Shown here one piece after another: positions 6,196 to 61,874 of a DNA stretch of 64,000 bases; the first letter of the stretch is position 1; every line of letters begins with the position of its first letter. The DNA is from Neodothiora populina (Eukaryota). The position numbers and the translations under genes were made by a program. Location: positions 372,001 through 436,000 of the forward strand of contig NW_027191413.1 in the NCBI RefSeq assembly GCF_041146345.1, written 5' to 3'. The notes below the pieces were generated by a model. That model was not told where the DNA came from and searched no databases. It saw only the letters and a list, made by a program, of their open reading frames with translations.

Positions 6196-9090
6196 ATGTT
6201 GTCGTCCTCAACTGCAGATGCGTCTATCTGTCTGAGATGCCACCTGCGTCTTCTCATACGTCAAATTGCTCCTCGAGCTCGTCCGACCTTCCAGCAACGG
6301 CGCCACCAGTCATCCGAGAGAATAGTTCCTGAGAATGAACAATCTGCCGGGCAACAGCATGGGGCCGAGTCAGAGAAGCCGAATACTTTGCGCATCCGTA
6401 GAGGACCTAGAAGTGCCAGAAAGCCTCGCTTCCGGGAAACAACTGCGAGGCTGCCCATCGCGAGTCTGAATGCCGATACTGAAGTCATCGTCTTGCGAGA
6501 TTTGCCCAGTGATATTCACTTCAAGATCAATGGACCACCCAAAGCTGTGCAGCAAGATGAACTGTCAAAAGACCATGCCGAGATCGAACCCGCCTTGACC
6601 GCAAAAGACATTGAATCTTTTGCCAGTAGCAAGACGAAGAAGCCCTTGCAGAAGGAAGTCAACGCCTCCATTGATGCCTCTCGATTTGTCGAAGCCGAGG
6701 TCGTCACAAAGCAGCAGTACGAAGACAAGGTCAAAGAGCTGGTGACATCGTATAGTATAGGCCAGCTGCGCAAGTACGCACTTCCAAAATCGACACGAGC
6801 AACGAAGGCGCCTCAAGTTGGTCCATATCCCCCCGAAGCCAAGGGTCTCTCGATTTCCAGTGTAAAGAGGCAGCTATCAGCCACCCAATGGACCCCGCTC
6901 ACGGGATCGCGTGCCGTCCCCGAGAGAGAACGGCTTCCTTATGGGAGATATGGCTTGGCTAAGAGGCAGGCAGCCGAGTATATATTGCGCGACTGCTGGA
7001 ATGTGCGCATCGAGGATGAGCTGAGTGAAGTGGGGGAGCTCAACATCTATCTGAGACCCATACAGTTAGACCTCTGGCTCAACAGTACCTCGGAGGCTGT
7101 CAAAAGCGTCATGCCTTCGAGCCGCTATTACCAGAACTCCAAACTTCAGCTTCTGTCTTCAGAAGGCACTCTGCGACTCACTGGTCCCAAGGCTGAAGTC
7201 GAAGCCATGGCAGGCACCATACAGGAGGCCTTTAAGAACAGCGGCCATTTTACCATTGACTTGAACACTGTCACCCTTTTGTTGCCTCAAAGCACTAGCT
7301 TCGACACGATATACTCGACTGCTCAGCTGAGGGAAATAATGTCTCTCACCAATTCGAACATCATCTACGATAAATCGGAGAACAAGGTAAGAGTCACCAA
7401 CTTCGACAAGGACAACATGCGCGATACCTTACGCTTGCTATATTCTCTCCTACCTGTCCCGTCACGCAAGACTATTTCCGAAACTCTCCAAATGCAGCAG
7501 TCCGAAAAGCAATTCATGATGTCAATGCCTCGTGTCAATGGTCTGCCGTATCGTCATCGCTCAGAGCATCTTGGTCGCCTGGTACAGGTCGCATCTAAAG
7601 CATCCAGAGGAAGCGTCAGAATTGATGACAAGAGCGACAAGCCAGACTCGAAGCAGGATGATCGAGAGATGATGGTCCAGACATTGTCCAAATGCATACC
7701 ATCTTCCCCACGCGAGGCCGTGAAAGGTCTTTATGTGTCTGACCAATACTGGAATGCTGAACCCGAGCAATTACCCTGGAAAGCCAGGATAGGACAATTG
7801 CTCCGCCCCATAACTGGCCCTAACCCGGTCGTCGCTGATGCGCCTATCGTCTTGACGCCAAAACATGATGCTGCAGTGAGTCCGTCTTCAAATTCAAAGT
7901 TCATGCCAAGTTTTCCTGCGAGCCTCGGGGCTCTGTCACAATTGGGCCTGCTCAGCAACCCCGTCGGAATGGAGTCGCCAAGCCAAGTGGTGAAACGGAG
8001 GCAGATGATACGTCCGCCGGTGCAACTGATAGCAAAGCTGACGCCCTCGCCCTTTTCTGACCTCGGCCCGCTCGCAACGAGTATGTTTCCTGAAGTCACA
8101 CTCAAGTTTCGGGAGGAATTGCCCGTCAATGAGCATGCTACACAAGCCCATCAGCCGTCCGGGCCCCCAGAGTTGAAGTTTGTCGGTATGCAAGCTACGC
8201 TGGCGCACGAGATGGTGGATGTAGCCCTGCCAGATCAGTCAGTGGATTTGCGTTTCGATCGCAAATTGGTGTTGAAGAGTAGACGAGCCGAGGACGACGC
8301 CCATATCAAGACCTTCATCTCTGTAATCATCAACAGCGAGAAATCCAAGGAAGGGGTCATCCGTGCACCTTCGACGCTGACGCTTGATCTGCCGACCTGG
8401 ACGCTGAAGGCACCCGTGGTAGATGGGTTCGATGACTCGGAAGCGGTACAGACCTTGCAAAAGAAGTGGGAGAGTCTCTCGAAGAAGCAAAGTGCCAGCA
8501 TGACGTACAACTTCGCGGGCTTCGAGTACAGGGAACGCAGAAACATTGATCCCGCACAGGGAAGCCTTGCCAAGGATGCATACTTCTCGCCCGAGCACGT
8601 TCTGAGAGTTGAACACGTCGAGGGAGGTATCATGTTTGGAAAGAGGGTGCAAGCGACTATCTTATCGAAGCAGGAACATGTGCCACTTCACCGGACCATG
8701 TCACGCAGAGGTGAAGCTGAGCCTGCACTACTTCGCACCGTGTTGCCCATGCCTGCCATCTTCAGGAGCAAGATCGAGACATCGGCATCGGAAGAGACTG
8801 GTCCCAGAACAGAGCAGAGATTGGTTCGCACTACATTGTCACTTGTTGACCTTATCGATAGGGTGCAGCGAAGGGAATGGAGACTCAGTCCCACGGTTCA
8901 ACAGAAGATCAAAGTTTCCAATGCCCGTCGACAACACGATGCCAAAACAAAGTTTGTGCAGGGGGAGCAGAAGCTGTACAGATACGCAGACCGAAGTGAA
9001 CGACCTGACAAGGATGGTGGAATAGAGGAACCTGACACTAAAGTCGAGACAGCGGATGATGTCAAAAATACCCTGATTCCAGAGGCATGA
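6196..9090 (+). CDS. Putative mitochondrial inner-membrane regulator (SLS1-like)
   Basis: 964-aa single ORF with an Arg-rich, acid-poor presequence-like N-terminus (SICLRCHLR..RRHQS). Segments such as ARLPIASLNADTEVIVLRD and ILRDCWNV recall filamentous-fungal SLS-domain proteins. Family call is from memory only. Confidence 0.55.
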   Translation: MLSSSTADASICLRCHLRLLIRQIAPRARPTFQQRRHQSSERIVPENEQSAGQQHGAESEKPNTLRIRRGPRSARKPRFRETTARLPIASLNADTEVIVLRDLPSDIHFKINGPPKAVQQDELSKDHAEIEPALTAKDIESFASSKTKKPLQKEVNASIDASRFVEAEVVTKQQYEDKVKELVTSYSIGQLRKYALPKSTRATKAPQVGPYPPEAKGLSISSVKRQLSATQWTPLTGSRAVPERERLPYGRYGLAKRQAAEYILRDCWNVRIEDELSEVGELNIYLRPIQLDLWLNSTSEAVKSVMPSSRYYQNSKLQLLSSEGTLRLTGPKAEVEAMAGTIQEAFKNSGHFTIDLNTVTLLLPQSTSFDTIYSTAQLREIMSLTNSNIIYDKSENKVRVTNFDKDNMRDTLRLLYSLLPVPSRKTISETLQMQQSEKQFMMSMPRVNGLPYRHRSEHLGRLVQVASKASRGSVRIDDKSDKPDSKQDDREMMVQTLSKCIPSSPREAVKGLYVSDQYWNAEPEQLPWKARIGQLLRPITGPNPVVADAPIVLTPKHDAAVSPSSNSKFMPSFPASLGALSQLGLLSNPVGMESPSQVVKRRQMIRPPVQLIAKLTPSPFSDLGPLATSMFPEVTLKFREELPVNEHATQAHQPSGPPELKFVGMQATLAHEMVDVALPDQSVDLRFDRKLVLKSRRAEDDAHIKTFISVIINSEKSKEGVIRAPSTLTLDLPTWTLKAPVVDGFDDSEAVQTLQKKWESLSKKQSASMTYNFAGFEYRERRNIDPAQGSLAKDAYFSPEHVLRVEHVEGGIMFGKRVQATILSKQEHVPLHRTMSRRGEAEPALLRTVLPMPAIFRSKIETSASEETGPRTEQRLVRTTLSLVDLIDRVQRREWRLSPTVQQKIKVSNARRQHDAKTKFVQGEQKLYRYADRSERPDKDGGIEEPDTKVETADDVKNTLIPEA

Positions 9091-20514: not shown

Positions 20515-21240
20515 TTCTGTCTTGATTCGGTTCGCTCTTATCGCACTTTCACTTTTTATTTTATCTTGCTCTTGGATCCATCATCTTACTCAAACATTAT
20601 CTCACCTTTGAGTCCATCTCACTCTTGATTCACGCTTATTCGGCTCACACTTCCTAGGTCCATCTCTCTCTCTTAACGTAGTCTCATCATTGTACTCAAT
20701 ACGCTCTTGATTCACGCTTAATTAGATTCATCAGTTCATCTTCGGATTCCAGCTGGACGCGCGAGGTCCAGGACTCAAGATAGGCTCGCTACTAATCTAC
20801 GGTTCGTCTATATTGGATTTGTCTTGCTCTTGGTTCATCTTCTTGTTCTTAGTCCATCTTACTTTAGAGTCGTTTGCTCTCGGTTCACCTACCTCGCTCT
20901 TGACTCATATATCTCTCTCGATTCATCTTTCTCTTGTAATCCTATCTCACTCTCTTCATATACTTCTCTTTTGATCTAAACTCGCTCTTGATTCGCTTCG
21001 CTCTTATTGCACTTTCACTTTTGAATTCATTCCACTTTTGATTCTATCTTGCTCTTGAATCAATCTCACCCTTGGTTCATCCTTTTCTCTCTAAATGCCA
21101 TCCGACCCTCGGTTCCTGATTTACTCTTTAGGCCATCTCACTCTTGCTTCACGCTTGCTTAGGTCCATTAGTTCACCTCTGAATCCCATCTGGACTCGTT
21201 GACGAGCCCTTCTCTCCTGATTCACTCTTTGTTCTTTCTC
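20515..21240. repeat. Degenerate pyrimidine-rich minisatellite (~16-17 bp unit, ~ATCTCACTCTTGATTC) with a ~450-bp higher-order duplication
   Basis: Recurrent ctcttgattc / ctcttggttc units. cttgattcggttcgctcttatcgcactttcactttt (20521) recurs at ~20987. ctcttgattcacgctta..gttcatc..ctggac (20705) recurs at ~21141. Confidence 0.7.
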
Positions 21241-22875: not shown

Positions 22876-22899
22876 GCGGAGAAGCGGTTCTACCTTGGT

Positions 22900-23220
22900 C
22901 AGCGACTGTTAATCGAGTAGTCATTTACTGTTGATTGACTAGGTATTCATTGACTGTTCATCAAGTTGTTGTTAACTGCTTATTGTCCGTTTATTGTCCG
23001 TTCATCGAGTAGTCACTAACTATTTATCAACCATTCATCGAGTAAGGTAGTCATTGACCATCTACCGAGTAATAATTATTGACTATTCGTCAACCGTGTA
23101 CTCCGTGCCCAGCAGTCAAACGATAGCTACTCGTCAAAGAATCATTGATCTCATTAGAGAGTCATTGCCTATTCATCAGAAACTCATCAACCATTCATAT
23201 AGAAATCATTGACTGAGGTA
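22900..23220 (+). repeat. Degenerate 11-bp tandem array, family 2 (~TTCATCGAGTA / GTCATTGACTA)
   Basis: Phased units ttcatcaagtt gttgttaactg cttattgtccg tttattgtccg ttcatcgagta gtcactaacta tttatcaacca ttcatcgagta ... gtcattgccta ttcatcagaaa ctcatcaacca ttcatatagaa atcattgactg. Confidence 0.8.
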
Positions 23221-45549: not shown

Positions 45550-45915
45550 CATTGAGATCTTATTGGGATCTTATTGAATTCTTGCAGTAAACTCATTGGT
45601 ATTGTGTTGCAAGGTCTGTCGGACTCGTCACTATTTCGCTGCTTTTTCGCTACTTCTTCACTACCCTCTGACTCAATATTCACTACTCTCTAATCCCGTG
45701 ATCACTGCTCTTTAATTGCTTCTTCATTGCTCTTTAGCTGCCTTCTCACTGCTCTTTTACTGGATTTGTACTGCTTCTCCACTGCTCTCCTTTACACCAT
45801 TCTTCAACTGCTTTCTTACTGCTTTTCTAACTGCCTCTTCACTGCCTTGCCTACTTCTTCGCAACTCTCTTGACTACTTTCTGATATCTCTCTCACCGCT
45901 TTCTGAGTGACCTTT
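45550..45915 (+). repeat. Degenerate 11-bp tandem array, family 1 (~TCACTGCTCTT)
   Basis: Phased units tcactgctctt taattgcttct tcattgctctt tagctgccttc tcactgctctt ttactggattt gtactgcttct ccactgctctc, preceded by cattgagatct tattgggatct tattgaattct. Confidence 0.8.
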
Positions 45916-47109: not shown

Positions 47110-49007
47110 ATGCTTTTTTGCCAAAGATTCGTTGCTACGTACCTTGGCCTCTCCGTACACCTGAGTTTGGTCTTGGGCATAATACCATGGCGCGTCTCGT
47201 GGGGGGATGGTGCAGGCAAGTGACATGGAAGGCGAGCATGGAGAAATTATACTAAGCAATGCACAGTTGGACCAGATGGTCGGTATAAGATAGCGCAAAG
47301 CTCAGTATTTTACTGTAACTAAATTCAACAGGACCATGGAACGCACTACTTGTAGGCGTCGATTCACCACCACAAAACTTGACATTTCTGCCATCCCTAA
47401 CGAAGAGTACTCTGCTCATTTCGGATGGCGCATGTTCCAGTCAGTCATCTGTGTGTCCTCTGCCATTGCCTAATTTCTGGCTCAACTCCTCTGCCCACGC
47501 CGAATTTGTTTGGATAGATAGCCCCTCCTGGGACGCCAGCACTTGGGATGCTACTGTATCCGAACCTCTTCAACTCGATGGACAAGGCCTTCTTCTACAC
47601 GAGACGCTCCAACTCTATAATCAGCCAAAGACAAATATAAATGGATTCGTCAACCAGGCCATGGCTCTGACACAAGACATGACCGTCAATTATCCAGACG
47701 GTACAAATTACACGATGGACGTGGGATTTTTCTCTGTCTACGGAGCTGCAGACAACCAGACCTGGACGTCGACGAATGGCTCAAAGATAACCTTGGACAG
47801 CACACTACCTTCCGTTTACAACGGGGGTGTGATACCATCGACCAGCTATTCACTCCATATGGGGTCTGCGTCGCTCGAGGTGCCTGGTAGCCTTGTACTC
47901 GGGGGTTATGATCGGTCCCGATGCTTGACGACACCAATAACCAGCGACAGTTCCGTTTTCCAGCTTCATGGTATTAACATCGGAGTTCGCGCTGGAGCAA
48001 GTGCGTTCATAGGAGCCACTCGACCGAATATCAGCTCTATACAACTTCTTTCGGGGCCCGAATTGACCGTCTTGCCAAACCCAGGTGTACCTTACATGTA
48101 CTTGCCAAGAGCAACATGCGATGCTATTGCCGAGTACCTACCTGTCAATTATAATGCTGACAAAGGTCTCTACATCTGGAATACCAGCAACCCTGCTTAT
48201 CAGCAGATTGTCAGTTCTCCTCATACACTTTCTTTTACATTCGCATCCTCGACCTCGGGCAGCAACGATACTATTCACATACCTTTTGCTCTTTTGAATC
48301 TGACCCTTGATTCGCCAATCGTGAATCCACCCCTACAATACTTTCCCTGCAGCCCTTACAGTCCATCAGACTCGACGACATACCACCTTGGCCGTGCATT
48401 CCTGCAGGGAGCTTTCTTGGCTCAACATTGGCAGACGAATACGACCTGGCTAGCACAAGCTCCTGGGCCAGCAAAGTCATCAGAGAACATCATCAATCTG
48501 GAACCCGAAGATACGACTCTCGCCGCCATGGTCAATGGTCCAAATTGGTACAGCACTTGGCAAGACACACTAAAGCCTCTAGCCAATGACAAGCCAGGGG
48601 AGATTACGGACTCACTTTCCGGAGGTGCAATAGCAGGAATAGTAGTTGGTGTAGTAGTTGGTGTTCTTCTCGTCGTCGCTGCTGTTGTATTCTTTTTCAT
48701 CCGTCGACGGAGGGCACGTTCTTCGGCTGGAGCAAACGCTCCAGGCGATGGAGACGATACGCGACAAGAGCTCAAAGATTATCCTACAGAGGACAATGAT
48801 CACGCTGCCGGTGCGTCAACCCCATTAGTGACGTCGCCCTCCGAGGCACATTCGAGACATTTAGTTGAGGCACCTTACACCGAGATTCACGAGATTGCAG
48901 GGAGCAAGAATAGACATGACGACGAAGATCCCTTCAAGGACAAGGAGATGAAACTTGCAGAAATGGAAGATCGTCGCTCACCTGTAGCAGAGCTTCCAAC
49001 AAATTAA
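47110..49007 (+). CDS. Secreted/type I membrane pepsin-fold (peptidase A1-like) protein, probably non-catalytic, 3 exons
   Basis: Exons 47110-47215 (signal peptide MLFCQRFVATYLGLSVHLSLVLG), 47267-47278 and 47332-49007 give GAVGPDGPWNALLVGV. A1-like motifs IPSTSYSLHMGS..GSLVLGGYD, PYMYLP, IHIPFALL and LGRAFLQGAF. TM helix LSGGAIAGIVVGVVVG..FFFI is followed by RRRR. Confidence 0.85.
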
Positions 49008-49149: not shown

Positions 49150-49320
49150 CGACCTCACCGCCTTCTATCATCATTCCTCGCTCTTGCTCCAGTTGTGGTT
49201 CGGTATGCCTTCAGTATGCCATCACTTCTACTTCAGTTATAGTTCAGTACGCCCTTACTTCCACCTCACTCATGGTTCAGTATGCCCTTACTACGACTTG
49301 CTGCTTAACAGTCACAATTA
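49150..49320 (+). repeat. Degenerate 11-bp array with 33-bp higher-order repeat
   Basis: cttcagtatgc catcacttcta cttcagttata / gttcagtacgc ccttacttcca cctcactcatg / gttcagtatgc ccttactacga. Confidence 0.72.
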
Positions 49321-49590
49321 CAGTATATGCTTTGCTCATAGCATTTTCTTTTGCAATTAATTTCCTCATCCGATTAAGATCAGCTACATTACGTTCCTTC
49401 GCCCGGGCGCGTTCTTTCCTACGTTGATTAGCATTTTTGTCTTTGCGTGTCTGGTCTCCTCCTTCTGTAAGGATGAGTTTCCTCTCAGCCTTCTTCTTTA
49501 CCTTGTATCTCTTCTGAGCAGCAGCTTGGTCGGCAAGCCTCTCCAGCCTCTCCTCCTATCTTAGTAGCGAGATGCTTTACCTAAGACTGT
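49320..49590 (-). pseudogene. Lys/Arg-rich STPR-like repeat element, copy 1 (disrupted; absent from ORF track)
   Basis: Minus strand reads EERLERLADQAAAQKRYKVKKKAERKLILTEGGDQTRKDKNANQRRKERARAKERNVAD, colinear with the 60566-61153 ORF. Upstream there is a frameshift and a TAG where other copies have Trp. Confidence 0.75.
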
Positions 49591-49619
49591 ACTCTGCACA
49601 ATTGGAACGTGACTAGAGC

Positions 49620-49745
49620 CGCAGTAAGAAAGTGAAGAAGTCGCAGTTAAGACTCAGTGAATGCGCAATCAAGACTTAGTGAAAGCGTAGTCAAGACTTA
49701 GTAAAGGCGTATTCAAAAGTCGGTAAAGGTGTAATCAATGTAGAT
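49620..49745 (-). repeat. 11-bp array (22-bp dimer), family 1, minus strand
   Basis: Reverse complement gcctttactaa gtcttgactac gctttcactaa gtcttgattgc gcattcactga gtcttaactgc. GCCTTTACTAAGT also occurs at ~56306, ~57092 and ~58409. Confidence 0.8.
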
Positions 49746-50365
49746 GTAGTGCTTTCTCGCTGTGGTAGATCCTGAATATAGCCATATTATATGTTTGGTT
49801 TTGTTCAGTGATAATTCAGCCTATGAACAATGATCCCTTACTTCTTGATTATTTACAATAGACTTTGTGATTATTATTGTATTACATTTTGACTACTTAC
49901 TCTTGTTTCATAGCTTCTTTATACTTCCTTTCGAGTTTATTGCACGCTTTATTTGCATTTAATATTACCTTTTGTTGCATTTTTTGACGTTCCACTTCAC
50001 AATCAGTTCCGTTTCGCTTCCCAATTGTGTGAGCTTCATTATACAACTACTTATGCTCCACCTTGCAATTATCTACGCTGCACTTTGTGATTACTGGCTC
50101 TGCACCAAAGGCAAGGTACAATGCAATTGCCTATTCCTACGATGACGTATGGATGATTAGACCTCACATTCGGTGCTTAGTGTGAGGATCTAGATGTTCC
50201 AGATTCCAGGACGTTTGGCTAAGTAAAGTATAATTGTGCAAATGCAGGTTCATTGAACAATTAACGTCGACGGTTGTCTGTAATATATAGTAAAGTGATG
50301 TACTGTGCCGCGAAGGTCTCCTCAGCTCCATTGTTGCTTGGTCTCGTACACTCTTTACAAGTAAA

Positions 50366-53300
50366 ATGGTTGCATCAGAGACTGAAGATGTGATACTAGA
50401 CCTCATCTCTGCCGATGACAGGCCGACTTTCATACTCGAAACCCCAATGTCACCTTCAGATAATCATGAGGATCCGCAAATCATCTATCGCAACACCGCG
50501 CTCGTCTCATTCCTGGAAACACCGAGAACAAGTCCATTATCATTCGAGACATGGAGCAATTCCCTTGCAAGAGCTTCATTAAGACAACCGATAGCAGCGA
50601 CTGCAGGAGAAGCCCGCCATGCAGGTGTCTTTGGTGACAGAGAATGGTCCAGTAAAAGCCTCAAGTGCGGTTGGACAATAGTGTATTGCAGGAAACACAA
50701 CTGGAACACTTCAGCCCATCAATCGAAAGCTGAGCAATCAACTTCCGCTTATTATACTGGTACTATAGAATACGAGGATGCGGCTGCAGAGACGGATATT
50801 CCATTAAGTCAACTACATATTGACTGGCTGAAATATCCTCTCCTGAGCTCTGATCCATGGATCTCCTACTTGCGCGGCTTTAATTGGAGCAGCACTAAGC
50901 TTGGTCCAACGAACGAATGGTCATCTACGCTTTGTAGCTATGTTATAACCATAATGGCATGCCACGAACCTCGTTACATTTTCTGGGGGGACGACTTAAT
51001 CATGCTTTATAATGAAGCTGCAGTTCCAATACTTGGACCAATTCATCCAGGCTCACTCGGCAAGCCGCTGGCTGATATCTGGGGCAAAACATTACATGAT
51101 CAACATCAGAGGACCATCAGACATGGAATTCAGCAGGGTAAAGCCTTTCCAATCAAGGCTGCCGAACTTATCGTCGAACGAAATGGGTTTTACGACGAAC
51201 TTTACAGTGACATACAATATACTCCGATACCCTCAGAAGATGGCCGTTGGAGCGGCTCTCTTCTAGAGTATCACGATGTTACACCTAGGATATATCAAGA
51301 GAATCGCAAAAAGGTGGCTGCTGCCATCTCAAATTGCACTGCCAGAATGCAATCTTTGGCTGGGTTTTGGGTCGAATCAACTAAAGTTTTGGAAGCAGAG
51401 TCCAAAGACGTGTCATATGCCGTCATATACAGCGTGAACAGTCGTACATCAGCGGAGTCTCCGCCCTATCAATTCGAGGCCTCATATGGTACTGATAGCT
51501 CATTATTCAAGGATGAACCTCCTCTCAGCTTGGCCAATGCCTTCTCCACCAATCAGGGATCACTACACCTCTTGCAGAAATCGACTCAGACTTTGCCTCC
51601 AGAACTCACAATGACAACAGCGCATGGAACGGTATCTTCTGCATATATCATGCCTGTCACCAGTGGAATAGGAGCTGAACTGGCCTACGTAATTCTCGGC
51701 ATGAATCCGAGGAGAGCTGCTGAGGAAAGCCATCTTTTTGTGACACACCTACGTGATCTGTTCGAAAGATCTTGCGCAATCATAGATTTGCCCGAAGCTA
51801 GGAAACGTCTGGAAGAAGCGAACCTAGCTCTTCTCGACCAGCTTCGAATCACAAAGGTCAAGGCGGAGAAGAACGAGGAGGCCTTTAAGAGAATGGGCCG
51901 TCAAGCCCCTGCCGGCATGTTCATCTTCGCTGCAGATGGTCGACCCCTCTACGCTAATGAGGCATATCTCAATCTATTCGACTTATCTAATAGCAAGTTC
52001 TATGACGATGCACAGACAGATTTTGTTTGGGGTGCGGCCTTGTACGAAGAGGATCATCAAAGTGCTAAAGACCTCATGATCAAGGTGTTCAGAGACAAAC
52101 AAACTGGCTCCTTCGAGTATCGCCTAAGGTCTGGTTCGCAGACTATACCGCGCTGGATGGAAGGAACCATATTTCCAGAAACGGATGATGCCGGGAATGT
52201 TGTGTCATTCCAAGGATGGGTCGCCGACATCTCGCATCGTAAATTCGCCGAACATGTTCGAGAGGAACGACTTCAGGAAGCTCTGGATCACAAGCGAGCC
52301 GCTGAGAAGTTCCTGGATATGATCTCGCATGAGATTCGCAACCCTTTATCATCTATCCTCCTCTTAGCTGAAGATATCCTTATGTCACTTCCCCAAGACA
52401 AGAACGTTGTCTTGCCGCCTGAAAACACTGACTCGATTATAGATGCAGCAAAAACGATTTCTCTATGTGCAGTGCATCAGAAGAGCATTGTAGATGAAGT
52501 TCTAACCATCTCAAAATTGGATTCAAACCTGCTCGTACTCAGTCTGGAGAAAGCTCGAGCCTTGTCCATTGTAGAGTCTGGCCTCAAAATGCTGTCCGCT
52601 GATCTGTCCGCTGCAAACATCGAGAAATCTGTCAACGTCTTACCTAGCTATGAGGGATTGGGATTAGACGACATATTACTGGATGTTCATCGAATGACGC
52701 AGGTTTTCATCAATCTTTTAAACAATGCGATCAAGTTTACACGAGACTCTGAGAAACGTAGGATTACTGTAACCATAGGTGGTTCGACTGAGCGACCTGC
52801 GGCAGGCTCCTCACCGGTCACTTTTATCCCGTGTCGTATGAAACAATCGGGCTCTCTCATCTCACGAGTCAAGCAATCCGCTGCTGTCGAAGCTGGACGT
52901 GAAATCTATATTCATTTCAGCGTTGAAGATACTGGTTGCGGCCTCACTGGAAGCGAAATGTCGCACTTGTTCCACCGCTTTTCACAAGCATCACCCAAGA
53001 CCTACAAGCAATATGGGGGAAGTGGATTGGGCCTCTTTATTAGCAGGGAATTAGTCGAACTCCATGGGGGGCAAGTCGGTGTCCGCAGTTCTCCTGGAGT
53101 AGGCAGCAACTTTATGTTCTACATTCAAGCATATCGTGCTAAATCAGCCTCTGCTCTGGAAACTGTGGTTAGAGCGAGCGATGTCAAGGCAGTTTCAGAA
53201 GCAAACACGCCTCTGAAAAAGGGTTCGTTGTCGTTGTCTAATGGAAAGGAAAGCTCTCTAAAAGATATGCATGTTCTACGTAAGTTTACTCATTGGTTTG

Positions 53301-53802
53301 TCTTCTTGAGCGCACCACTGATACGAGTAGTCGTTGAGGATAATCCAGTGAACCAAAAGGTCATCGCCAAACAGCTTCGCAGAGCTGGTTGTAAGACGGT
53401 CAAAGTCGCTGAACACGGAGTCGAGGCTCTAGACTTCCTCTCGAAAAGCTCACTATACAAAGATCCAGGGGTAGATCAAATACCTCTCTCGGTGATACTT
53501 CTGGACGTCGAAATGCCTGTAATGGACGGTCTGACATGTATACGACGCATCCGCGAACTTGAGGGAAGTGGGGACATAATTCAACATGTTCCCGTCATTG
53601 CTATCACAGCAAATGCTAGACAGCAGCAAATTGACGATGCCTTGCAAGCAGGAATGGACTCGGTCGAGGTATATCACGTCCCATTCTTTTTGAAAATAAC
53701 TCACAGTATCTTTACTGACTTTCCTTGCAGACCAAGCCTTTCAATATTCCGGACCTTGTGTCTCGTATGGAAGCTCTTGTCGCAAAATGGCAACCGTCTT
53801 GA
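50366..53802 (+). CDS. Hybrid histidine kinase (PAS/GAF-like - PAS - HisKA - HATPase_c - receiver), 3 exons
   Basis: H-box FLDMISHEIRNPL, N-box QVFINLLNNAIKFT, G1 VEDTGCG, G2 YGGSGLGLFISRELV and receiver LLDVEMPVMDG. Intron 53280-53330 gives HVLLVEDN; intron 53669-53730 gives TKPF..WQPS* at 53802. Confidence 0.93.
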
Positions 53803-53989
53803 TTTTGCGTCCTTGCAATTTGAGATTGATAACGAGATAAATGAATAGAGGATGAGCGATAACATCACCATAATATTGGCCTAGTGGACAGCCAAGTCAA
53901 GCGTTGATGAGGCGAGAGGCGCTTATACTTAATGCTGAGTAATCCCTAATTGTACGTAGATAAAACAACAGTCAGGTAGAGCCTGTACA

Positions 53990-54170
53990 GTAATTGGAAG
54001 TATAGTAAACAACAAGTAATAGAGAATTGGATATCGAGTATGAGCTGTATCAATAACAACTGAAATAGCGCAGGTTTACAGTGAACATCGAGTGACAGGT
54101 CAATAATTGGTTGATGACTGGTCAATCAATCTGTAGCAAAGTACTACTTATTGAATGAATAACACATACT
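53990..54170 (-). repeat. Degenerate 11-bp array, family 2, minus strand
   Basis: Reverse complement gattgaccagt catcaaccaat tattgacctgt cactcgatgtt resembles the 22.9-23.2 kb units. Boundaries are fuzzy. Confidence 0.5.
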
Positions 54171-54801
54171 ACTAGGATGAATTACAGATGAAGGGTTTAA
54201 CAAAGTACGAGCAAACGTAGATTGAATTTCAAAGTGAATTGTGAAAAAGTGCGAAGTGAACCTCGAGTAAATGCTTCTTCTAAGCGCGAATGGGTATGAA
54301 GTACCTTAATTAAAGGTATTAGTGGTCCGGACCTTCCATGGAGTGTCCGCACGGCGACTTCAATTCCTCCGAAGCTGGTGACCCTACTTCCATACCATCC
54401 TGACAGAGTCACTCTCCATTGACTACTATTGTACCTCGTATTAGCGCCAATAGTAAGCACGCATGGATGCGCCATCGTAGGACTCCGACTGAGAGCTTGT
54501 CCGAGAGGTTGAGAGGCGTTCTTACGACCCACATGTATCAAGGTCTAGCATGGTCGCTTATGGCGATATATCCCCAACAGCAGCAAGTCCTCTCACTATT
54601 TAAGTGACCTTGTCTCCTTTTGCGGACTGTACAATTTCGCCAACCGAATCCTTCCAAGCAGCCGTGATATTCTTTATCTAGCATCCAGCAGAACCTGTTC
54701 ATTTCGTGTTGTACCACAGCATATTCCCTTAACAATCATCGGTATGTTCATCTATACATTTGTGACCCAACGACGGCGATTGATGACCCGTGAGGAACCT
54801 A

Positions 54802-56126
54802 ATGACTACCTTGATAAACCGCATCTGGACGGCTTTCAGCCCTCCTCAGCCTGCGAAGAAAGACGATGCTCTTAAATTTGGTGTACTGGGAGCTGCGACG
54901 ATTGCGTAGGTGTTTCTCTTGCTCGATTTGACACTCGCTAAATAGTGATACAGTCCTCTTGCGTTGATAATCCCTGCCAAATCGCATCCCGAAGTCATCA
55001 TTCAGGCAGTGGCTGCTCGTGATCGCAGAAAGGCAGAGGCATTTGCGAAATCTAATGGTATACCAGAGGTCAAGGGGTCGTACCAAGGTCGGTGTTTCTC
55101 TCTCATCTTGCTTTTGTTCTCATGGCTGAAATTTCTTCCTCAGAGATCATTGATGATCCGAATATTGACTGTGTATACATTCCGCTGGTGAACAACCTGC
55201 ACTTCGAATGGGCTGCTCGTGCAGTCCGCGCTGGAAAGCATGTCCTTCTGGAAAAGCCATCCGCTTCGAATTCGACCGAGGCCGAGATTCTATTCAACTT
55301 GCCTGAGTTGTCTGCTCCTCATGGTCCAGTCCTTCTAGAAGCTTTCCACAACCGATTCCATCCTTCTTGGGCATTTTTCAAGTCCTTGGTCAAGCCTGCT
55401 GATGTAGTCCACGTTACTTCTCATTTCATGTTACCCTGGTGGACGAATTCGAAGAACGATATCTTCTTCAACTACAATCTTTCCGGAGGCAATATCATGG
55501 CCGTGGGCACGTACAATCTTGCTGCGACACGACTTCTCTTCGATGCCGAGCCAGAGGAGTGTATCGATTGTGATACTAAAGCTTACACTGATGGTGTCCA
55601 TGCCAAGTGTGATTACGAATTCAAGGCCAGATTTCGCTTCCCGAATGGTGGAATCGGCGAAGCCAGCAGTACACTCAGAGGTGGAACTATGTACAGGGCT
55701 GCATACGTGACAGTCACGACCAAAGGAATCGTGGTCCCCGATGACACTCTCCCTGCCAGCCAGGAGAAACGCCGCTCTCAGGAACTCACTATCAGCGATC
55801 TGATCCATGGTGGTTTCTGGCACAGAATTGACGTCACGAGCACGTTCAAAATATGTGACAGAGAAACAGGTACAGTGATCAAGAAGTGGGTGGAGAAGGA
55901 AAGTCACAAGGCATACACCTTCGAAGAAGCCGGTATGGCCAACCTGCCCGGTGAGGACTACTGGCTGTCTTATCGACATCAATTGGAGCAGTTTGTAAAC
56001 AAGATCCGAGGTCGCGAGACGCAGCATTGGGTCACCGCAGAGGATTCCTTAGTTCAGGCGAGGATGATCGATATGGCGTATGAAAAGAGTGGTCTCGGAC
56101 TTCGACCTACTAGCTCTTTCAGATAA
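54802..56126 (+). CDS. Gfo/Idh/MocA family NAD(P)-dependent oxidoreductase, 3 exons
   Basis: Exons joined over introns 54906-54953 and 55088-55143: LKFGVLGAATIA|PLALIIPAKSHPEV..VAARD..SYQ|EIIDDPNIDCVYIPL..GKHVLLEKP..LLEAFH. Confidence 0.92.
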
Positions 56127-56297
56127 GGTGATTTCTTCTTCTTTCTAACGTCAGTCAAAACTCGTCAGTCTCACTGTTACTTAATTGTCCTTCGCTATTG
56201 TTTGATCAAATGTGCTTCATCACCTCTATCTTTCTAACTCGCCCTAGCACACGTAATCCTGCCAGTCTCTACAGAAGCTCCATCTACGCAACTCGGA

Positions 56298-56418
56298 TCT
56301 ACTAAGCCTTTACTAAGTATCAACAACATCTTCATTGCGGACTCACTGCTCCTTCATTACTCCTTTACTGCTCCTTTACTGCTTCTTCATTAACTCTTCA
56401 CTGCTTCTTCACATAATC
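56298..56418 (+). repeat. 11-bp tandem array, family 1
   Basis: Eleven in-phase units: tctactaagcc tttactaagta tcaacaacatc ttcattgcgga ctcactgctcc ttcattactcc tttactgctcc tttactgcttc ttcattaactc ttcactgcttc ttcacataatc. Confidence 0.88.
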
Positions 56419-56519
56419 AGCAAGAAGAGAGGTACAGCGCTGCTATTGAAAACTGGCTGGTGTACCATTCTGCGCCTGTCCCCGATGATGTCGACCTCGA
56501 TGAAAAGACTTCTCGCAGC

Positions 56520-57090
56520 CAAGAACGTGCTAGGAAATGGTCTTGGAGTATAAAAAGGGAGACCCTAAGGCGGAGAAAGCATACATAGCGGCATATTGGA
56601 AGAAACGTATAGCTAACGAAACCCCCAAGGAGAGGACTGTTCGTCTAGCTGCTGCTGCTACTGAACGTTATTACAACAGACAAAGGGCTGAACGGAAACT
56701 TAATCCTGTTATTCTAACAAAAAAGAGGACGGTATAAGAAAGGAGAAAGTGAACAAGAAAAGAAGGGGCAAACCCCTTAAGGAAAGGACTGTTCGTTTAG
56801 CTGCTGCTGCTACTGCTGCAGAACATTATAAAAACAGATAAAGGGCTAAACGGAAACTTGATCATGTTGTTCTGACAAAGGAAGAAGATAACGCAAGGAA
56901 GGCGAAGGTGAATAAGAAGAGAATGGGGGAGAGAGCACGACAAAGGGCTCGAGAGACTGCTAATTCTAGTAAGAAGAAAAAGTTAAGTTCTAAGCAGGAT
57001 AGGATTTGTAAGAAGAAGAACGCAGTAAGGCAGGCCAACCTTCGTAAGAAGAACAGAATTGCAGCAAAAGGAGCTGGCATGATTCTCTAA
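56520..57090 (+). pseudogene. Lys/Arg-rich STPR-like repeat element, copy 2 (internal ~150-bp tandem duplication, stops/frameshifts)
   Basis: AYIAAYWKKRIANETPKERTVRLAAAATERYYNRQRAERKLNPVILTKK, then a second KERTVRLAAAATAAEHYKNR*RAKRKLDHVVLTKEEDNARKAKVNKKR..KKKNAVRQANLRKKNRIA. Confidence 0.8.
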
Positions 57091-57226
57091 CGCCTTTACT
57101 AAGTCTGACCTAATCCTTTATTGTGGATTTAATAAGTCCTCACTACCTCTTCACTAAGTCTTCATTGCTTCTTCACTAACTCTTCATTATCCTCTGACTG
57201 CCACTTTGGTGCATCTTCATTATTGC
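57091..57226 (+). repeat. 11-bp tandem array, family 1
   Basis: tttactaagtc tgacctaatcc tttattgtgga tttaataagtc ctcactacctc ttcactaagtc ttcattgcttc ttcactaactc ttcattatcct ctgactgccac tttggtgcatc ttcattattgc. Confidence 0.88.
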
Positions 57227-57281
57227 ACAAGCCCTTAACCTCCATTGCTCACGAAGTCCGTGACTTAATGCTGCGGCTTGC

Positions 57282-58150
57282 TTACTTCTTTCTACTGCCG
57301 CGGGAACCCTTTCTAGATACACGGCGGGTGCTTCCTCCTTTAGCGCCCTTCTTTCCTCCCCTACTGCCGCCACGAGCCCTACTACTACCTGTGCCAGATT
57401 GACCACGACCCTTACTCTCCTCGCGGTCGTGATCATCATCGTCGTCGCTGTCGCGTACGAACTCGGTTGACAACGTCTCCTTAATGGCGCCTCGACTCAC
57501 CCTGGCTCGCCTCTCAGGCTTCGACACAATACCCTCTTGGGAAGATTCTTCCGCGTCCTGTATCTCTGTGTCCTGCTGCATAGACGCACGAAGTTCGTCG
57601 TCCATAGATTGCAACTCACTCAAGGCCGGCTCCGAGCTCTTAGTTCTTCCGCGTCCTGCATCTCTGTGTCCTGCTGCATAGACGAATGAAATTCGTCGAA
57701 ATCCATAGAGTTCAACTCACTCGAGGCCGGCTCCGAGCTGTTAGCTCTGGGTGTAGGCGAAGTTGGAGTAACAGCCCGAACAAGTGGTTAACCACTTCTT
57801 CTCTCGCTGTAAGGTCCCCAAGGCTGACATCGGCAAGCGGTGAATCGCTCATGTCAGTATCGTCGTCTGGGACAGTATCGACGACTGTCTTAGCAACAGT
57901 GTCGAACAAGAGTCGGTGTTTCTGCCCCTTTGCGGTGGATGTCATGAGGCCAGGTGTAGTAGACTGGCTGCTACCGAAAACCTTTTGTCTTTCCGCTAGC
58001 TCAGTGTTGCCGGCGGGCTGAACGAAACGGAAGCTTATGTTGCTCTTCCTACGCTAGGTCGAAGGGGTGACACCCTTAGTAGGTGTGTCATCGGTGTTGA
58101 ACAAGTGGGTAAGGAGATCCTTACAAGATATCTTGTTTAAACACGCCGTA
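57282..58150 (-). pseudogene. 3' fragment of an unknown gene with acidic region and RGG/basic tail
   Basis: One frame reads LTACLNKISCKDLLTHLF..PST*RRKSNISFRF..MTSTAKGQKHRLLFD (TAG at 58056-58054). It is frameshifted by a 98-bp tandem duplication and then ends ..DDDDDHD..RARGGSRGGKKGAKGG..RKK*. Confidence 0.55.
57546..57739. repeat. 98-bp tandem duplication
   Basis: ttcttccgcgtcctg(t/c)atctctgtgtcctgctgcatagacg..caactcactc(a/g)aggccggctccgagct starts at 57546 and again at 57644. Confidence 0.92.
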
Positions 58151-58174
58151 AGTCTTAGCAAAAGTAAGCAACGC

Positions 58175-58400
58175 TTAGTAAACAGAACCTCAATCCTGTT
58201 GTTCTAACGAAAAAAGAGGACAATGCAACAAAGGAGAAAGTGATCGAGAAGAGAAGGAGGGAGAAACCTCGACAGAGCGCTCGAGAGATTGCTGATCCCA
58301 GCAAAAAGGAAACATTAAATCGCTGAACAGGCAGGATTCGCAAGAAGAAGAACGCAGTGAGGCAGGCTAACCTTCACAAGAGGAACGGAATTGCCTCTGA
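58175..58400 (+). pseudogene. Lys/Arg-rich repeat element, copy 3 (5'-truncated)
   Basis: QNLNPVVLTKKEDNATKEKVIEKRRREKPRQSAREIADPSKK..*..RKKKNAVRQANLHKRNGIA; nucleotide-alignable to 56695-56765 and 56855-57065. Confidence 0.8.
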
Positions 58401-58545
58401 TTCACTACGCCTTTACTAAGTCTTTAACTACTTCTTCATTGTGGATTCATTAAGTTTTCACTACCTCTTCACTAAGTCTTTACTGCTTCTTCATAAGCTC
58501 TTTATCATTCTCTGACTGCCACTTTAGCGCATCTTTACTTCTACA
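58401..58545 (+). repeat. 11-bp tandem array, family 1; unit-for-unit paralog of 57091-57226
   Basis: ttcactacgcc tttactaagtc .. ttcattgtgga ttcattaagtt ttcactacctc ttcactaagtc tttactgcttc .. ctgactgccac tttagcgcatc. Confidence 0.88.
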
Positions 58546-58584
58546 TAATATCTATCTATCCCTCGTGTGCTATGACCGGGGTCT

Positions 58585-59865
58585 CTATATTGAACACGGT
58601 GGAAGCGAGAATCCCAAGTATGAGCAGGTCTCCTCGAATGAAGGTACAGCTACGGAAGCCTTTACCAGGAGCTGCTGGAAGTCTAACAGCGCACGCCTTC
58701 CCTCGGCGGTATTCGTCAAGGTTCGTCCTGATGTATCCTGGGCAGGTCTTCTAGCCTCGTCGTGAGAGGTAATGATTTCCTCTTCATCCCCGATCCTCGC
58801 TAACATGGCCATATCCTCTGCACTCCGATCAGCGTTTTCATTAGAATCCGTTTGGTTCCGAGGCCACACAACTTCGACGTTTTTAGCAAGGGTCTCACAG
58901 ACGATTTTTTGTTGCTCTAAGGTGAAAGTTGGCCGCAGCTCACCCTTGTCCTGTCCCATCGAGAGTCGGTGGAAGTTCGCGGTGGCATCCGCGATATTTT
59001 TCTCCAGCTTATCTAACAGCTCCTCTTTCTGCTCTGGCGGGATATCACTGTTCTGAACATCATCTTGCAGAGTGGCCTCCTGTCGGATGCGGTGACCAAA
59101 AGCGGAAAAGTGACTGGTCAACGACTTTTCTGCATGCTGCTCGGTGGCGTTGTCGCCGGCGAAGTCTTTGTCAGTAAGGTAGTGTGGAGGCACCGCGGCC
59201 TTGTTCTGCGGATTGGCTTTGCTTCGTGTGGTGCTGGCGTCCTTTTTGAAGCAGCGCTGGGCGCAACGGAGGAGTTCGTAGGCGCGATTGATATCTTCGC
59301 CAGAATATTCTCTGAAGTAACCGCTTTGGGATTTCTTGTTGTCCTCTGAATCATTCTGATTATCGAACATGCCCTTAGGCCCGTTCTTGATAAGCAAGGT
59401 GATTGCCTCAACTGTGGTGAGATAGTTGTGAGGCATTGTGCCAGTAGCCGCGTCTGGTAAATCTGGTAGTGGGAAATCGTATGCCTTCAGGTCTCCTGAA
59501 CTAGAACCAACATACTGGAATAGCTGCTTCTTCACCAGCGGGCCTGTCCGGCCTCCTACGAAATTGGCCTCGTCCGATCGATAAGCGCAATATGCCGCGA
59601 AGACATCAGCGCTAGCCTCATCATCGTAGATATACGATCTCAGAGCGTTGGTGTCAGGGAGATTGACGTATCCTGCTAGGTGGGCCATGCCGGTGTGGAT
59701 ATCCTTGCCCTTAACGTAAACGATGCGGGCGTAGGTGTCGGAATAATTGAAGCGTGCTGCGTCGATCTCATCCTGGTTTGGTCTGGCAGCTACTGGTGGT
59801 TCGGCCGAGGCTATAGTGGTGGTGCTTTAGTTGGCCTTTCCCTTCTGTCCCTTCTTAGGCGGCAT
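58585..59865 (-). pseudogene. Orphan gene with a premature stop at codon 13
   Basis: ATG at 59865 (MPPKKGQKGKAN*) is in frame with the 367-aa track ORF starting at 59688, interrupted only by TAA at 59829-59827. No family recognised. Confidence 0.6.
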
Positions 59866-60499
59866 GGTGGACACGCTGTAATAGAGTGCGATTGGAGTGA
59901 TAGACCGGAGGTAGAGTGATTCCGGAGATGATGAAGTAGAGTAGTGCGATTCCAGAACGCTGTACCTTTGCGATCTAGACGTGAGTGATGTCCTTATCTT
60001 GCTTCTCTTGCATTTCTTACCTTGCGTGTCCAAAGTCTGTACGTGTGTTTGCGAGAAGGAAATAGAGAAGTGTTTGCAAGATGGTGTACGGGAAAGTGAG
60101 AAATTGTGACCCTTGCCTAGCACACAGAATATGGCTACGACTCAATGTATCGATACCCTTGTGTCGATGGACTTGCCTGAGGATGCTATATCTCCTTACT
60201 TGGCGAACGATCGAGCAAGTGTCAGCGACCTAATGTGCTATAGCTGCTCTAAGACAGTTGAGGTCTTTGAGCGGTGATCAAACGTCGTATTGTCAGCACT
60301 AAAGGATGGTTGAAACCCTGATGCGATGAGGAAGCTTGATCAAGCAAAGTAGCAGGCCGACAACTGTGGAGGTATCCGATGACGAAGAGCAAAGAAACGT
60401 GTGAGGTGTAGAAAGGAAAGAGGAAATATTAGGACGAGGAAAGATGATAGGCACGAAACAGGCTATGCCCAAAGCGGTAAGCACTAGTCACAAGCCAGG

Positions 60500-60690
60500 G
60501 GGCATAAGAGTGAAGGTGAAGTCAATAGTTGGAGAGAAGAGCAAGGTGAAAGTGCAGGGGAAAATCTAGGGTAGAGGTGAATAGGGGGATTGCAATGTAA
60601 GGCTCGGAGTGAGGATTAGGCTCACTTTAGAGGTACTAACAGCAGGTGAACAGAGAGAAAGCGTGAGATTGAGAGTCAAAGTGAACCACT
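60500..60690. repeat. Degenerate ~6-bp periodic purine-rich tract
   Basis: agtgaa/ggtgaa/agtgag/cgtgag/agtcaa-like units; the minus strand translates as TLTLNLTLSL. Confidence 0.45.
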
Positions 60691-61250
60691 GACGACAGGC
60701 ATAATTACATACAGCGGATATCATTGCGTGCGCTGTTCTTATTGTGAGCTCTGGAGGCTCCTTAATTAGTAGAGGAAATATATACCGATTTTCCTCGTCC
60801 TCGTCCTTCTGGTGGAAATATGTTGTGATCTTTCCTTTAGGAGCAAGCTTAGCCAGTTTGTTCTTCTTTCTCCTAGCTGCCTCTCGCTCCCGATTGTACA
60901 TTTTCTTCGCGGCGGTCTGCTCTGCAGTGAACTGAGGTTTGCAGCTGGGATCCACTCTTTCCCGTTCTTTGCGTCTTGCTCGTTCGTCTCGACGCTGTTT
61001 AGCGTTCTTAGCCTTACGATCGCGATCTTCCTCCTCAGTCAACATAGGAGGATTGAGCTTTCTTCCAGCCCTTTTTTTATCGCGGTGACGCTTTTGAGCA
61101 GCAGCCTGCGCAGCAAGTCTCTTCACCCTCTCCCCCGCAGACTCGTTATCCAAGCGTTTCAGCCAGTAAGCTGCGAAACTGGCCTTTTGGTGGGCCGTCT
61201 AATCTTCTGTAGCTCTTTTGTTGTAGTTTTGAACGACTCTCCTAGCAGTG
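60566..61250 (-). pseudogene. Lys/Arg-rich STPR-like repeat element, copy 4 (most intact)
   Basis: TARRVVQNYNKRATED*TAHQKASFAAYWLKRLDNESAGERVKRLAAQAAAQKRHRDKKRAGRKLNPPMLTEEEDRDRKAKNAKQRRDERARRKERE..RRKKNKLAK. No ATG start is evident and there is one in-frame TAG near 61200. Confidence 0.75.
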
Positions 61251-61874
61251 TCTTAGTCGGATGAAATGAAGCCAAGGCAACAGTAACATAACAACGAGAT
61301 CACACAATAGTAAGCTGGTAGCAAGCTGTAGTTAAGCCGAGCTGAACCATAACCGAAGTAAAAGGAAGATAGCAATCACATAGCAGCGAGGTCGCAATTG
61401 GGCCCGACTGAACCATATGCTCAATGAAAATGAGCCGGCGATGAAGGTGAAATAGCAAAGTCCGGCTCGCAAGCAAAGGTCTATCAGCTGTCGAAGTCAT
61501 GAATCACGTTAGAGCGTGGTGTACCATGTAAGGGAAGAAGTCATAATCAAAATGGCCAAGCTTCGTTGCCAGGACTTCACCTCTGCCTTTACTGTATGTT
61601 TGTGTCTATACCACAATTTTCCTAGCCTCAATATGCGGAACAAAGGAAGCATCTTTAGAAGGCTCTGGTTGGGACAGCAGAGGCACAACAGTATCACAGT
61701 CACGAGAATAGAACATAGTAATGTAGGAAATGTTTCCATTGTCTCATCAAGGCATATGCCCCATTGAATTTTCTAGAGGAAAATCTCTAGTCAAGGGCTA
61801 AAGGGAAAACATCATGACCGTGGTATCTCTTGTACAAAGACGACCAGCCTTTTTGCTAAACCACCTCAACCAAT

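Follow-up and report, generated by a model that had tools for sequence, protein, structure and literature searches.

Decayed copies of an STPR-like reading frame beside arrays of one 11-mer in Neodothiora populina: possible remains of an old mobile family

The 64,000-nt stretch of Neodothiora populina DNA analysed here (contig NW_027191413.1; C6:372001–436000 of a 24-Mb genome in 18 contigs; hereafter the window) carries genes for EF1-alpha, a hybrid histidine kinase and a GFO oxidoreductase, with introns present, and this gene content is that of a fungus. Flanked by ordinary genes is a stretch of lower guanine–cytosine (GC) content, and within it lie four loci with remnants of one Lys/Arg-rich open reading frame (ORF) that resembles the STPR DNA-binding module, each next to arrays of an 11-bp unit. 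We refer to the loci as copies 1–4 of a family; a fifth copy was found on another contig, C17.

When copy 4 was used as a tblastn query, the other three loci claimed in an initial annotation of the window were recovered, in place and on the strands claimed: copy 2b (E 6e-18), copy 1 (5e-17), copy 2a (9e-11) and copy 3 (2e-8). After copies 1–3, the next match in the copy 4 frame had an E value of 0.07. The remnant of copy 1 lies at 49301–49620 on the minus strand, with a frameshift and stops within its STPR-like junction. Copy 2, on the plus strand, consists of 2a (56534–56734) and 2b (56770–57087); the latter combines an internal duplication of 2a with the 3′ half and has one internal stop. 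Copy 3 (58180–58401, plus strand) has the 3′ half only and is 77% like copy 2b. Copy 4 (60569–61198, minus strand) is a stop-free frame of 210 codons. The internal duplication proposed for copy 2 is real (56619–56768 and 56770–56927, 78% alike), and a second duplication is visible in the recurrence of 56847–57217 at 58179–58535 (77%).

Six family segments could be aligned almost without gaps at 35–55% identity. It had also been claimed that one AAYW...RL peptide runs colinearly through the four loci; the segments do align, but the AAYW..R..NE...ER..RL motif is complete in copies 2a and 4 only, copy 1 being frameshifted inside it, copy 2b beginning past the YW part and copy 3 being a 3′ half. 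Every copy is broken or incomplete, as had been proposed: copy 4, stop-free as it is, has no ATG ahead of the motif and an in-frame stop immediately upstream, and none of the copies found is intact and has a start codon. The copies are 60–78% alike (23–40% diverged), and with five copies only at this level of likeness a recent spread is not supported. Copies 2 and 4 are partly covered by a second public sequencing run of low depth (probably DNA), in which 11 of 12 records were at least 99% alike. Because this run matches parts of the two copies, an assembly artefact is unlikely; no spliced joints were seen in this one low-depth run.

The arrays were examined with a period-11 score. Values of 0.59–0.66 were obtained at five arrays (the two that flank each of copies 1 and 2, and the one 3′ of copy 3), compared with a maximum of 0.45 in 20 shuffled windows. 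The flank of copy 4 scored just 0.44. Its 5′ flank was recognised by the model of one array type (type B, column-permutation p 0.004) but not by that of the other (type A, p 0.17); because a model trained on other arrays recognises this flank, we consider the copy 4 array to be real but decayed. The claim that each locus abuts periodic arrays is therefore borne out by the period-11 scores for copies 1–3 and by the type B model for copy 4.

Two array types were distinguished: type A, with 11- or 22-nt units, and type B, with 33-nt units of three 11-mers. Sixty-three units gave a consensus near TT(C/T)A(C/G/T)T(A/G)CNNC. With a model of either type, arrays of the other are recognised, provided that the C-rich strand is read (+20 to +52 versus −10 to −21; column-permutation p ≤0.03), and the 5′ array of copy 5, which was outside the training set, scored 37; the phases of the models were set with similar reference units, and these scores may lean upward. 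All the flanking arrays are built on one 11-mer. In copy 1, a type A array on the minus strand (49625–49745) lies 5′ of the ORF and a type B array (49190–49300) lies 3′ of it, with its C-rich strand on the plus strand, i.e. inverted relative to the 5′ array; the type B array is 78–82% like that of the C17 copy. Copies 1 and 5 thus have the same order of type A, ORF and inverted type B, and the C-rich strands of both arrays point inward. Copy 2 has type A arrays on both sides in direct orientation (56295–56415 and 57090–57215, both plus strand), copy 3 has a type A array at its 3′ side (58405–58535, plus strand) and copy 4 has its decayed type B array at the 5′ side (61270–61430, minus strand). 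Inverted arrays of one unit at both ends are therefore found in copies 1 and 5, and not in copy 2. A solo type A array of the family 11-mer occurs at 45640–45860 (plus strand), with no coding remnant found beside it, and a more distant solo 11-periodic array at 22880–23080 (plus strand) is recognised by the type A model.

The protein profile and the array models were run on 494 kb, window included, and on a further 360 kb drawn from 18 contigs; the 854 kb amount to 3.6% of the genome. With a period-11 cut-off of 0.48, the 494 kb contained eight arrays, seven in the window and one at copy 5. Periods 10, 13, 14, 16 and 17 gave no array in the same sequence, and periods 9 and 12 gave ∼20 each, as codons predict. 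Beyond the window and the C17 copy, no array of the family 11-mer was found in the 854 kb. An 11-periodic GC-rich array on C12 (positions 8705–8878 of the sampled piece) was rejected as a family array: it has another unit, and the family models do not recognise it. The 11-bp period is therefore not unique to the family.

We considered whether the arrays are slippage products of the tail of the gene (its last codons and stop), with no role as ends. Translated in frame, the 33-nt units in copies 1 and 5 give T(M/I)xExxxRAY-stop and carry on the last codons of the ORF, and the stop codon of copy 3 sits within the start of its type A array. However, type A arrays are not confined to the 3′ side: copies 1, 2 and 5 each have one at the 5′ side, and another stands by itself at 45.7 kb. 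Moreover, types A and B are one 11-mer in opposite orientation relative to the ORF, which independent slippage would not yield, and we regard this origin as improbable. On the G-rich strand of the family arrays (e.g. 56295–56415), 46 of the 63 units start with TGA or TAA, and with a period of 11 this places stops in all three frames; the stops are probably a by-product.

The fifth copy (C17:390144–390545, minus strand) has the array–ORF–inverted array layout of copy 1 and aligns with it over 443 nt (61%, E 2e-18), spanning both arrays and the ORF. The flanks do not match, nothing in 20 kb around copy 5 being like the copy 1 flanks, and each of the two copies lies between ordinary genes. A genome search with copy 4 gave six matches among seven candidates, five in the window and one on C17; a search with copy 2b gave five of five, all in the window; and searches with array patterns gave 5, 3 and 5 matches. 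Single-mismatch pattern matches on C2 and C15 have no array and were ruled out as further copies. Genome searches at the DNA level, with copy 1, copy 2 or the tail of copy 4 as the query, returned matches in the window only; these searches are insensitive, because they also missed the 61% match of copy 5 and a 79% match to a kinase gene (see below). The genome search scores the best candidates only, and five copies is a lower bound; the protein profile and array models found no further copy in the 494 kb and 360 kb scanned. By the refuting conditions set in the initial annotation, the outcome is mixed: one more copy exists, and the similarity goes beyond that of a generic coiled coil, but exact shared ends were not found.

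To describe constraint on the ORF, we counted differences at first, second and third codon positions. These were 21/25/53 between copies 4 and 1 (p 1e-4), 33/33/67 for the same pair in a frame-blind DNA alignment (p 2e-4) and 14/15/28 between copies 2b and 3 (p 0.04; ratio of nonsynonymous to synonymous rates, dN/dS, ∼0.2). The bias was not significant between copies 1 and 5 (11/9/16, p 0.34, 30 codons), 2a and 2b (10/3/7, p 0.16) or 4 and 2b (p 0.07). Judged by these patterns, the ORF encoded a real protein, and selection acted on that protein while three lineages (copy 4; copies 1 and 5; copies 2 and 3) first diverged. Because synonymous sites are saturated between the main lineages, the family is old.

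The codon-position tests also bear on a chance resemblance among low-complexity Lys/Arg/Glu-rich frames over purine-rich repeats. The remnants are indeed Lys/Arg-rich and compositionally biased, and most Pfam matches of the copies are spurious. Against this stand the colinear, near-ungapped alignments with similarity at the DNA level, the third-position bias in frame-blind alignments and the 494-kb scan, in which no unrelated profile match was better than E 2.4. We regard chance resemblance as hardly credible, and as refuted by the profile scan together with the codon-position tests.

Copies 1 and 5 have a common upstream segment, absent in copies 2 and 4, and shift in the same phase at the junction. 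This suggests that the copying between contigs started from an ancestor of the two that had already lost its intact frame and, because of the common shift, the unit probably moved as an already non-coding passenger. The modes of decay seen are stops, frameshifts and local duplication. Between copies 2b and 3 there are 56 transitions and 19 transversions, and the C/T shares (0.48 at CpA, 0.47 at CpG, 0.29 at CpC and 0.23 at CpT) are no more than suggestive of repeat-induced point mutation.

The initial annotation had likened the peptides to the STPR repeats of silkworm FMBP-1. The Pfam STPR profile (PF21107) matched copy 2a, one of the six family members, at E 0.0016, and the sole STPR candidate in the genome scored 18.1 bits. 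In a search of 177,635 PDB sequences with copy 2a, the only match was FMBP-1 (5d23). We then scored the conserved residues E1, T/S2, R6, R9, L10, Y16, R20 and L21 (list from PMC4856987). Over one junction, copy 4 has 8/8 of these residues (61115–61168) and copy 2a has 7/8 (56594–56647), both in a phase that runs from the second half of one repeat into the first half of the next. None of 300 shuffles of either peptide reached seven residues, and no other site did so among ∼988,000 six-frame positions.

In place of three to seven strict 23-residue tandem repeats, we found the one junction, with later segments ∼35 residues apart. Because the 23-residue tandem is absent and the Pfam score is under the cut-off, membership of the STPR family fails. 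The likeness claimed thus stands for the junction residues and the PDB match, but not for the repeat structure or the Pfam threshold; on sequence, this is an STPR-like module and not a true STPR domain. As in FMBP-1, the segments are basic and probably helical and each starts T/S-x-E; unlike FMBP-1, the later segments of the family protein do not have the second half of the motif. An N-x7-R spacing, which we take to be bZIP-like, is visible in these later segments. A bZIP reading was rejected, with no Pfam bZIP match and no zipper.

Relatives of the protein were sought widely. Copy 4 had no relative among 119 candidates from 5.8 billion proteins, none in plasmids and none in eight stretches of viral contigs. 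Its best match in the ESM Atlas (0.87) is a lead only, PHROGs gave a single match (E 0.03) and the family profile reached E 0.3–0.4 at best against the PDB. One of 149 metagenome stretches matched and was rejected: the likeness covers 19 residues of a membrane protein with no relation to the family and is due to chance. On STPRs in fungi or transposons, and on subterminal or minisatellite arrays of 11 bp in fungi, only the HELIANO paper and its preprint came up. We found no description of such a fungal element in the open literature; subscription papers and Repbase lie outside this scope, and the HELIANO supplements may list STPR-bearing fungal elements.

Copy 4 contains a 73-nt kinase-like piece (60686–60758, minus strand) that is 79% like 51595–51666 (plus strand), which lies 9 kb away within the hybrid histidine kinase gene; relative to that gene, the piece is inverted on the contig. 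The alignment score was 83, compared with a null maximum of 39, and the copy 4 frame runs into the piece, in frame for ∼15 codons. Capture of gene fragments had been raised in the initial annotation, and a piece of a host gene does appear to have been captured in copy 4, with the kinase gene as the candidate source.

Two further regions of possible cargo lie between the copies, both on the minus strand. Between copies 2 and 3 are broken, coding-like pieces of an orphan gene (57282–58150), for which no family or relative was found; within them, 57546–57748 is a ∼100-nt tandem duplication, 88% alike. Between copies 3 and 4 is an orphan gene of ∼425 codons (58585–59866). Its start lies in a good context, and codon 13 is a stop. 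Its 413-aa frame found nothing in Pfam, PHROGs, the PDB, the Atlas or two homologue searches, and its C2 match (E 0.03) was dismissed as chance. The orphan gene and the pieces are possibly one gene split by copy 3. The end of the orphan gene recalls what we take to be the N-terminal parts of fungal SNF2-like helicases.

Taken together, the data are best read as the dead remains of an old, low-copy mobile family that would have combined an STPR-like ORF with arrays of one 11-mer, and to this we assign a probability of about 0.55. The initial annotation had proposed a non-autonomous element of array, ORF and array. The same unit on C17 fits this proposal, but no convincing target duplication, sharp terminal inverted repeat (TIR) or exact shared ends were found with it.

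Several findings weigh against a mobile origin. Just five copies were found, four of which share a 12-kb region, and the 360 kb from 18 contigs contained neither a copy nor an array of the family 11-mer. Array orientation is inconsistent, being direct in copy 2 and with type B at the 5′ side in copy 4. No convincing target duplication was seen, with only 6–8-nt direct matches at scattered offsets, and no common TIR, the best end-to-end local scores being 15–23. No hairpin plus CTRR end was found near copies 1 and 5, where decay could have erased one. Helitron_like_N (PF14214) had no match in the genome, with controls silent too, and the single PIF1 (PF05970) match reads as a host helicase. A six-row family profile found nothing at E 0.001 among 1.84 billion representative sequences. 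The STPR evidence is itself qualified: the PF21107 score of copy 2a, 19.2 bits, is under the gathering cut-off of 27, and the FMBP-1 E value of 3.3e-6 sums three weak domain matches, each with an i-E of at least 0.6. Finally, host paralogues would account just as well for the selection seen on codons.

The last point leads to a host origin, in which a small gene family specific to this lineage would have encoded a basic DNA-binding protein; ordinary recombination, local and ectopic, would have duplicated the genes together with their repetitive flanks, and all would now be pseudogenes. The strong codon-position bias between lineages, the clustering of four of the five copies and the very low copy number would all agree with this, as would the failure to find ends or target duplications; no transposase was seen, a genome-wide search for transposase families not having been made, and the ORF matches no Pfam transposon family. 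However, copies 1 and 5 have only the array–ORF–array unit in common and no flanking DNA, and the one 11-mer is inverted on either side of both. Solo arrays and a captured kinase piece also exist, and an intact copy with a start codon does not appear among those found. We therefore consider a host gene family rather unlikely.

In the mobile family that we prefer, the element would have encoded a basic, predicted helical, STPR-like putative DNA-binding protein, and its ends would have been the arrays built on one 11-bp unit. An array–ORF–array unit of ∼400–600 bp may have moved between contigs, helped by an enzyme that has since been lost or escapes recognition. Local duplication at a later time is the probable origin of copies 2a, 2b and 3. 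The arrays might have been subterminal sites for the element's own protein, spaced about one helical turn apart. A bolder version, which we consider very doubtful, is a fungal mobile element of a new kind, in which a putative tandem-helix STPR-like protein would read its own inverted 11-bp arrays, one unit per helical turn, in the manner of plasmid iterons; the 5-kb island at 56.3–61.4 kb would then be a cargo-bearing derivative with the orphan gene and the captured kinase piece. The value of the family is limited, in that each copy is either dead or partial, the family is tiny and neither a relative nor an enzyme that could have moved it is known; this one genome therefore does not suffice to reveal the mechanism. 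If the family was mobile, the range of STPR-like modules, described from animals, one moss and HLE1 Helitrons, would come to include an ascomycete element whose ends are built differently. It would also allow a cheap test of self-recognition, in which the protein of an element would bind the minisatellites at that element's ends.

Other features of the sequence were noted in passing. A degenerate pyrimidine-rich repeat lies in an intergenic gap at 20520–21200 of the window, with blocks 63–77% alike and ∼465 nt apart. A frame of 562 codons at 47319–49007 has weak, transmembrane-only Pfam matches; it reads as a possible pepsin-type protease with a C-terminal membrane anchor. The small contigs C9 and C10 (23–31% GC) are probably mitochondrial.

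Cut-and-paste elements with subterminal repeat arrays include CACTA/En-Spm, hAT and Foldback. The family differs from these in having no sharp TIR or target duplication and no transposase seen; it resembles them in its iterated short units, which are inverted at the two ends of short copies with internal deletions and accompany an ORF for a putative DNA-binding protein. With regard to its putative target, FMBP-1 prefers 4-bp AT-rich units, compared with the 11-bp unit of the family arrays, and STPR proteins are reported from animals and one moss, with no fungi, in the available part of PMC4856987.

The comparison with Helitrons, which the initial annotation had drawn, concerns a narrower form of the mobile family, in which the copies would be relics of an HLE1 element, the STPR-like ORF its accessory or N-terminal part and RepHel lost. 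In the portion of the HELIANO paper available (PMC11417382), STPRs among Helitron-like elements are almost exclusive to HLE1, which supports this lead. The captured gene piece and the head-to-tail array–ORF–array order of copy 2 also agree with it, as does the lack of a target duplication, which is not expected for Helitrons (stated for Helentrons in the accessible text of PMC4067079). Nevertheless, no 3′ hairpin plus CTRR of the HLE1 kind was found in the regions of copies 1 and 5; the 5.8-kb island has 14 candidates, a number near the background of 109 per 64 kb. No exact boundary common to the copies could be set when a 5′ TC end and insertion at A/T were looked for, no Rep or Helitron helicase was found in the genome (the PF14214 controls being silent), and inverted arrays on both sides, as in two of our copies, are not described for HLE1 in the same portion of PMC11417382. 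The link thus holds for the STPR-like ORF and the gene capture but not for ends or enzyme, and an HLE1 relic is unlikely. The non-autonomous Helentrons HINE and DINE-1 have, in the accessible text of PMC4067079, no coding capacity. They differ from the family, which carries a coding remnant and in which neither a 3′ palindrome nor, among the outer ends, a 12–15-bp subterminal inverted repeat pair of the HINE type was found; the copies may be too old to show them. As far as that text describes them, HINE and DINE-1 are like the family in being short and dispersed, in having tandem repeats inside the unit and in the inverted sequence near their ends.

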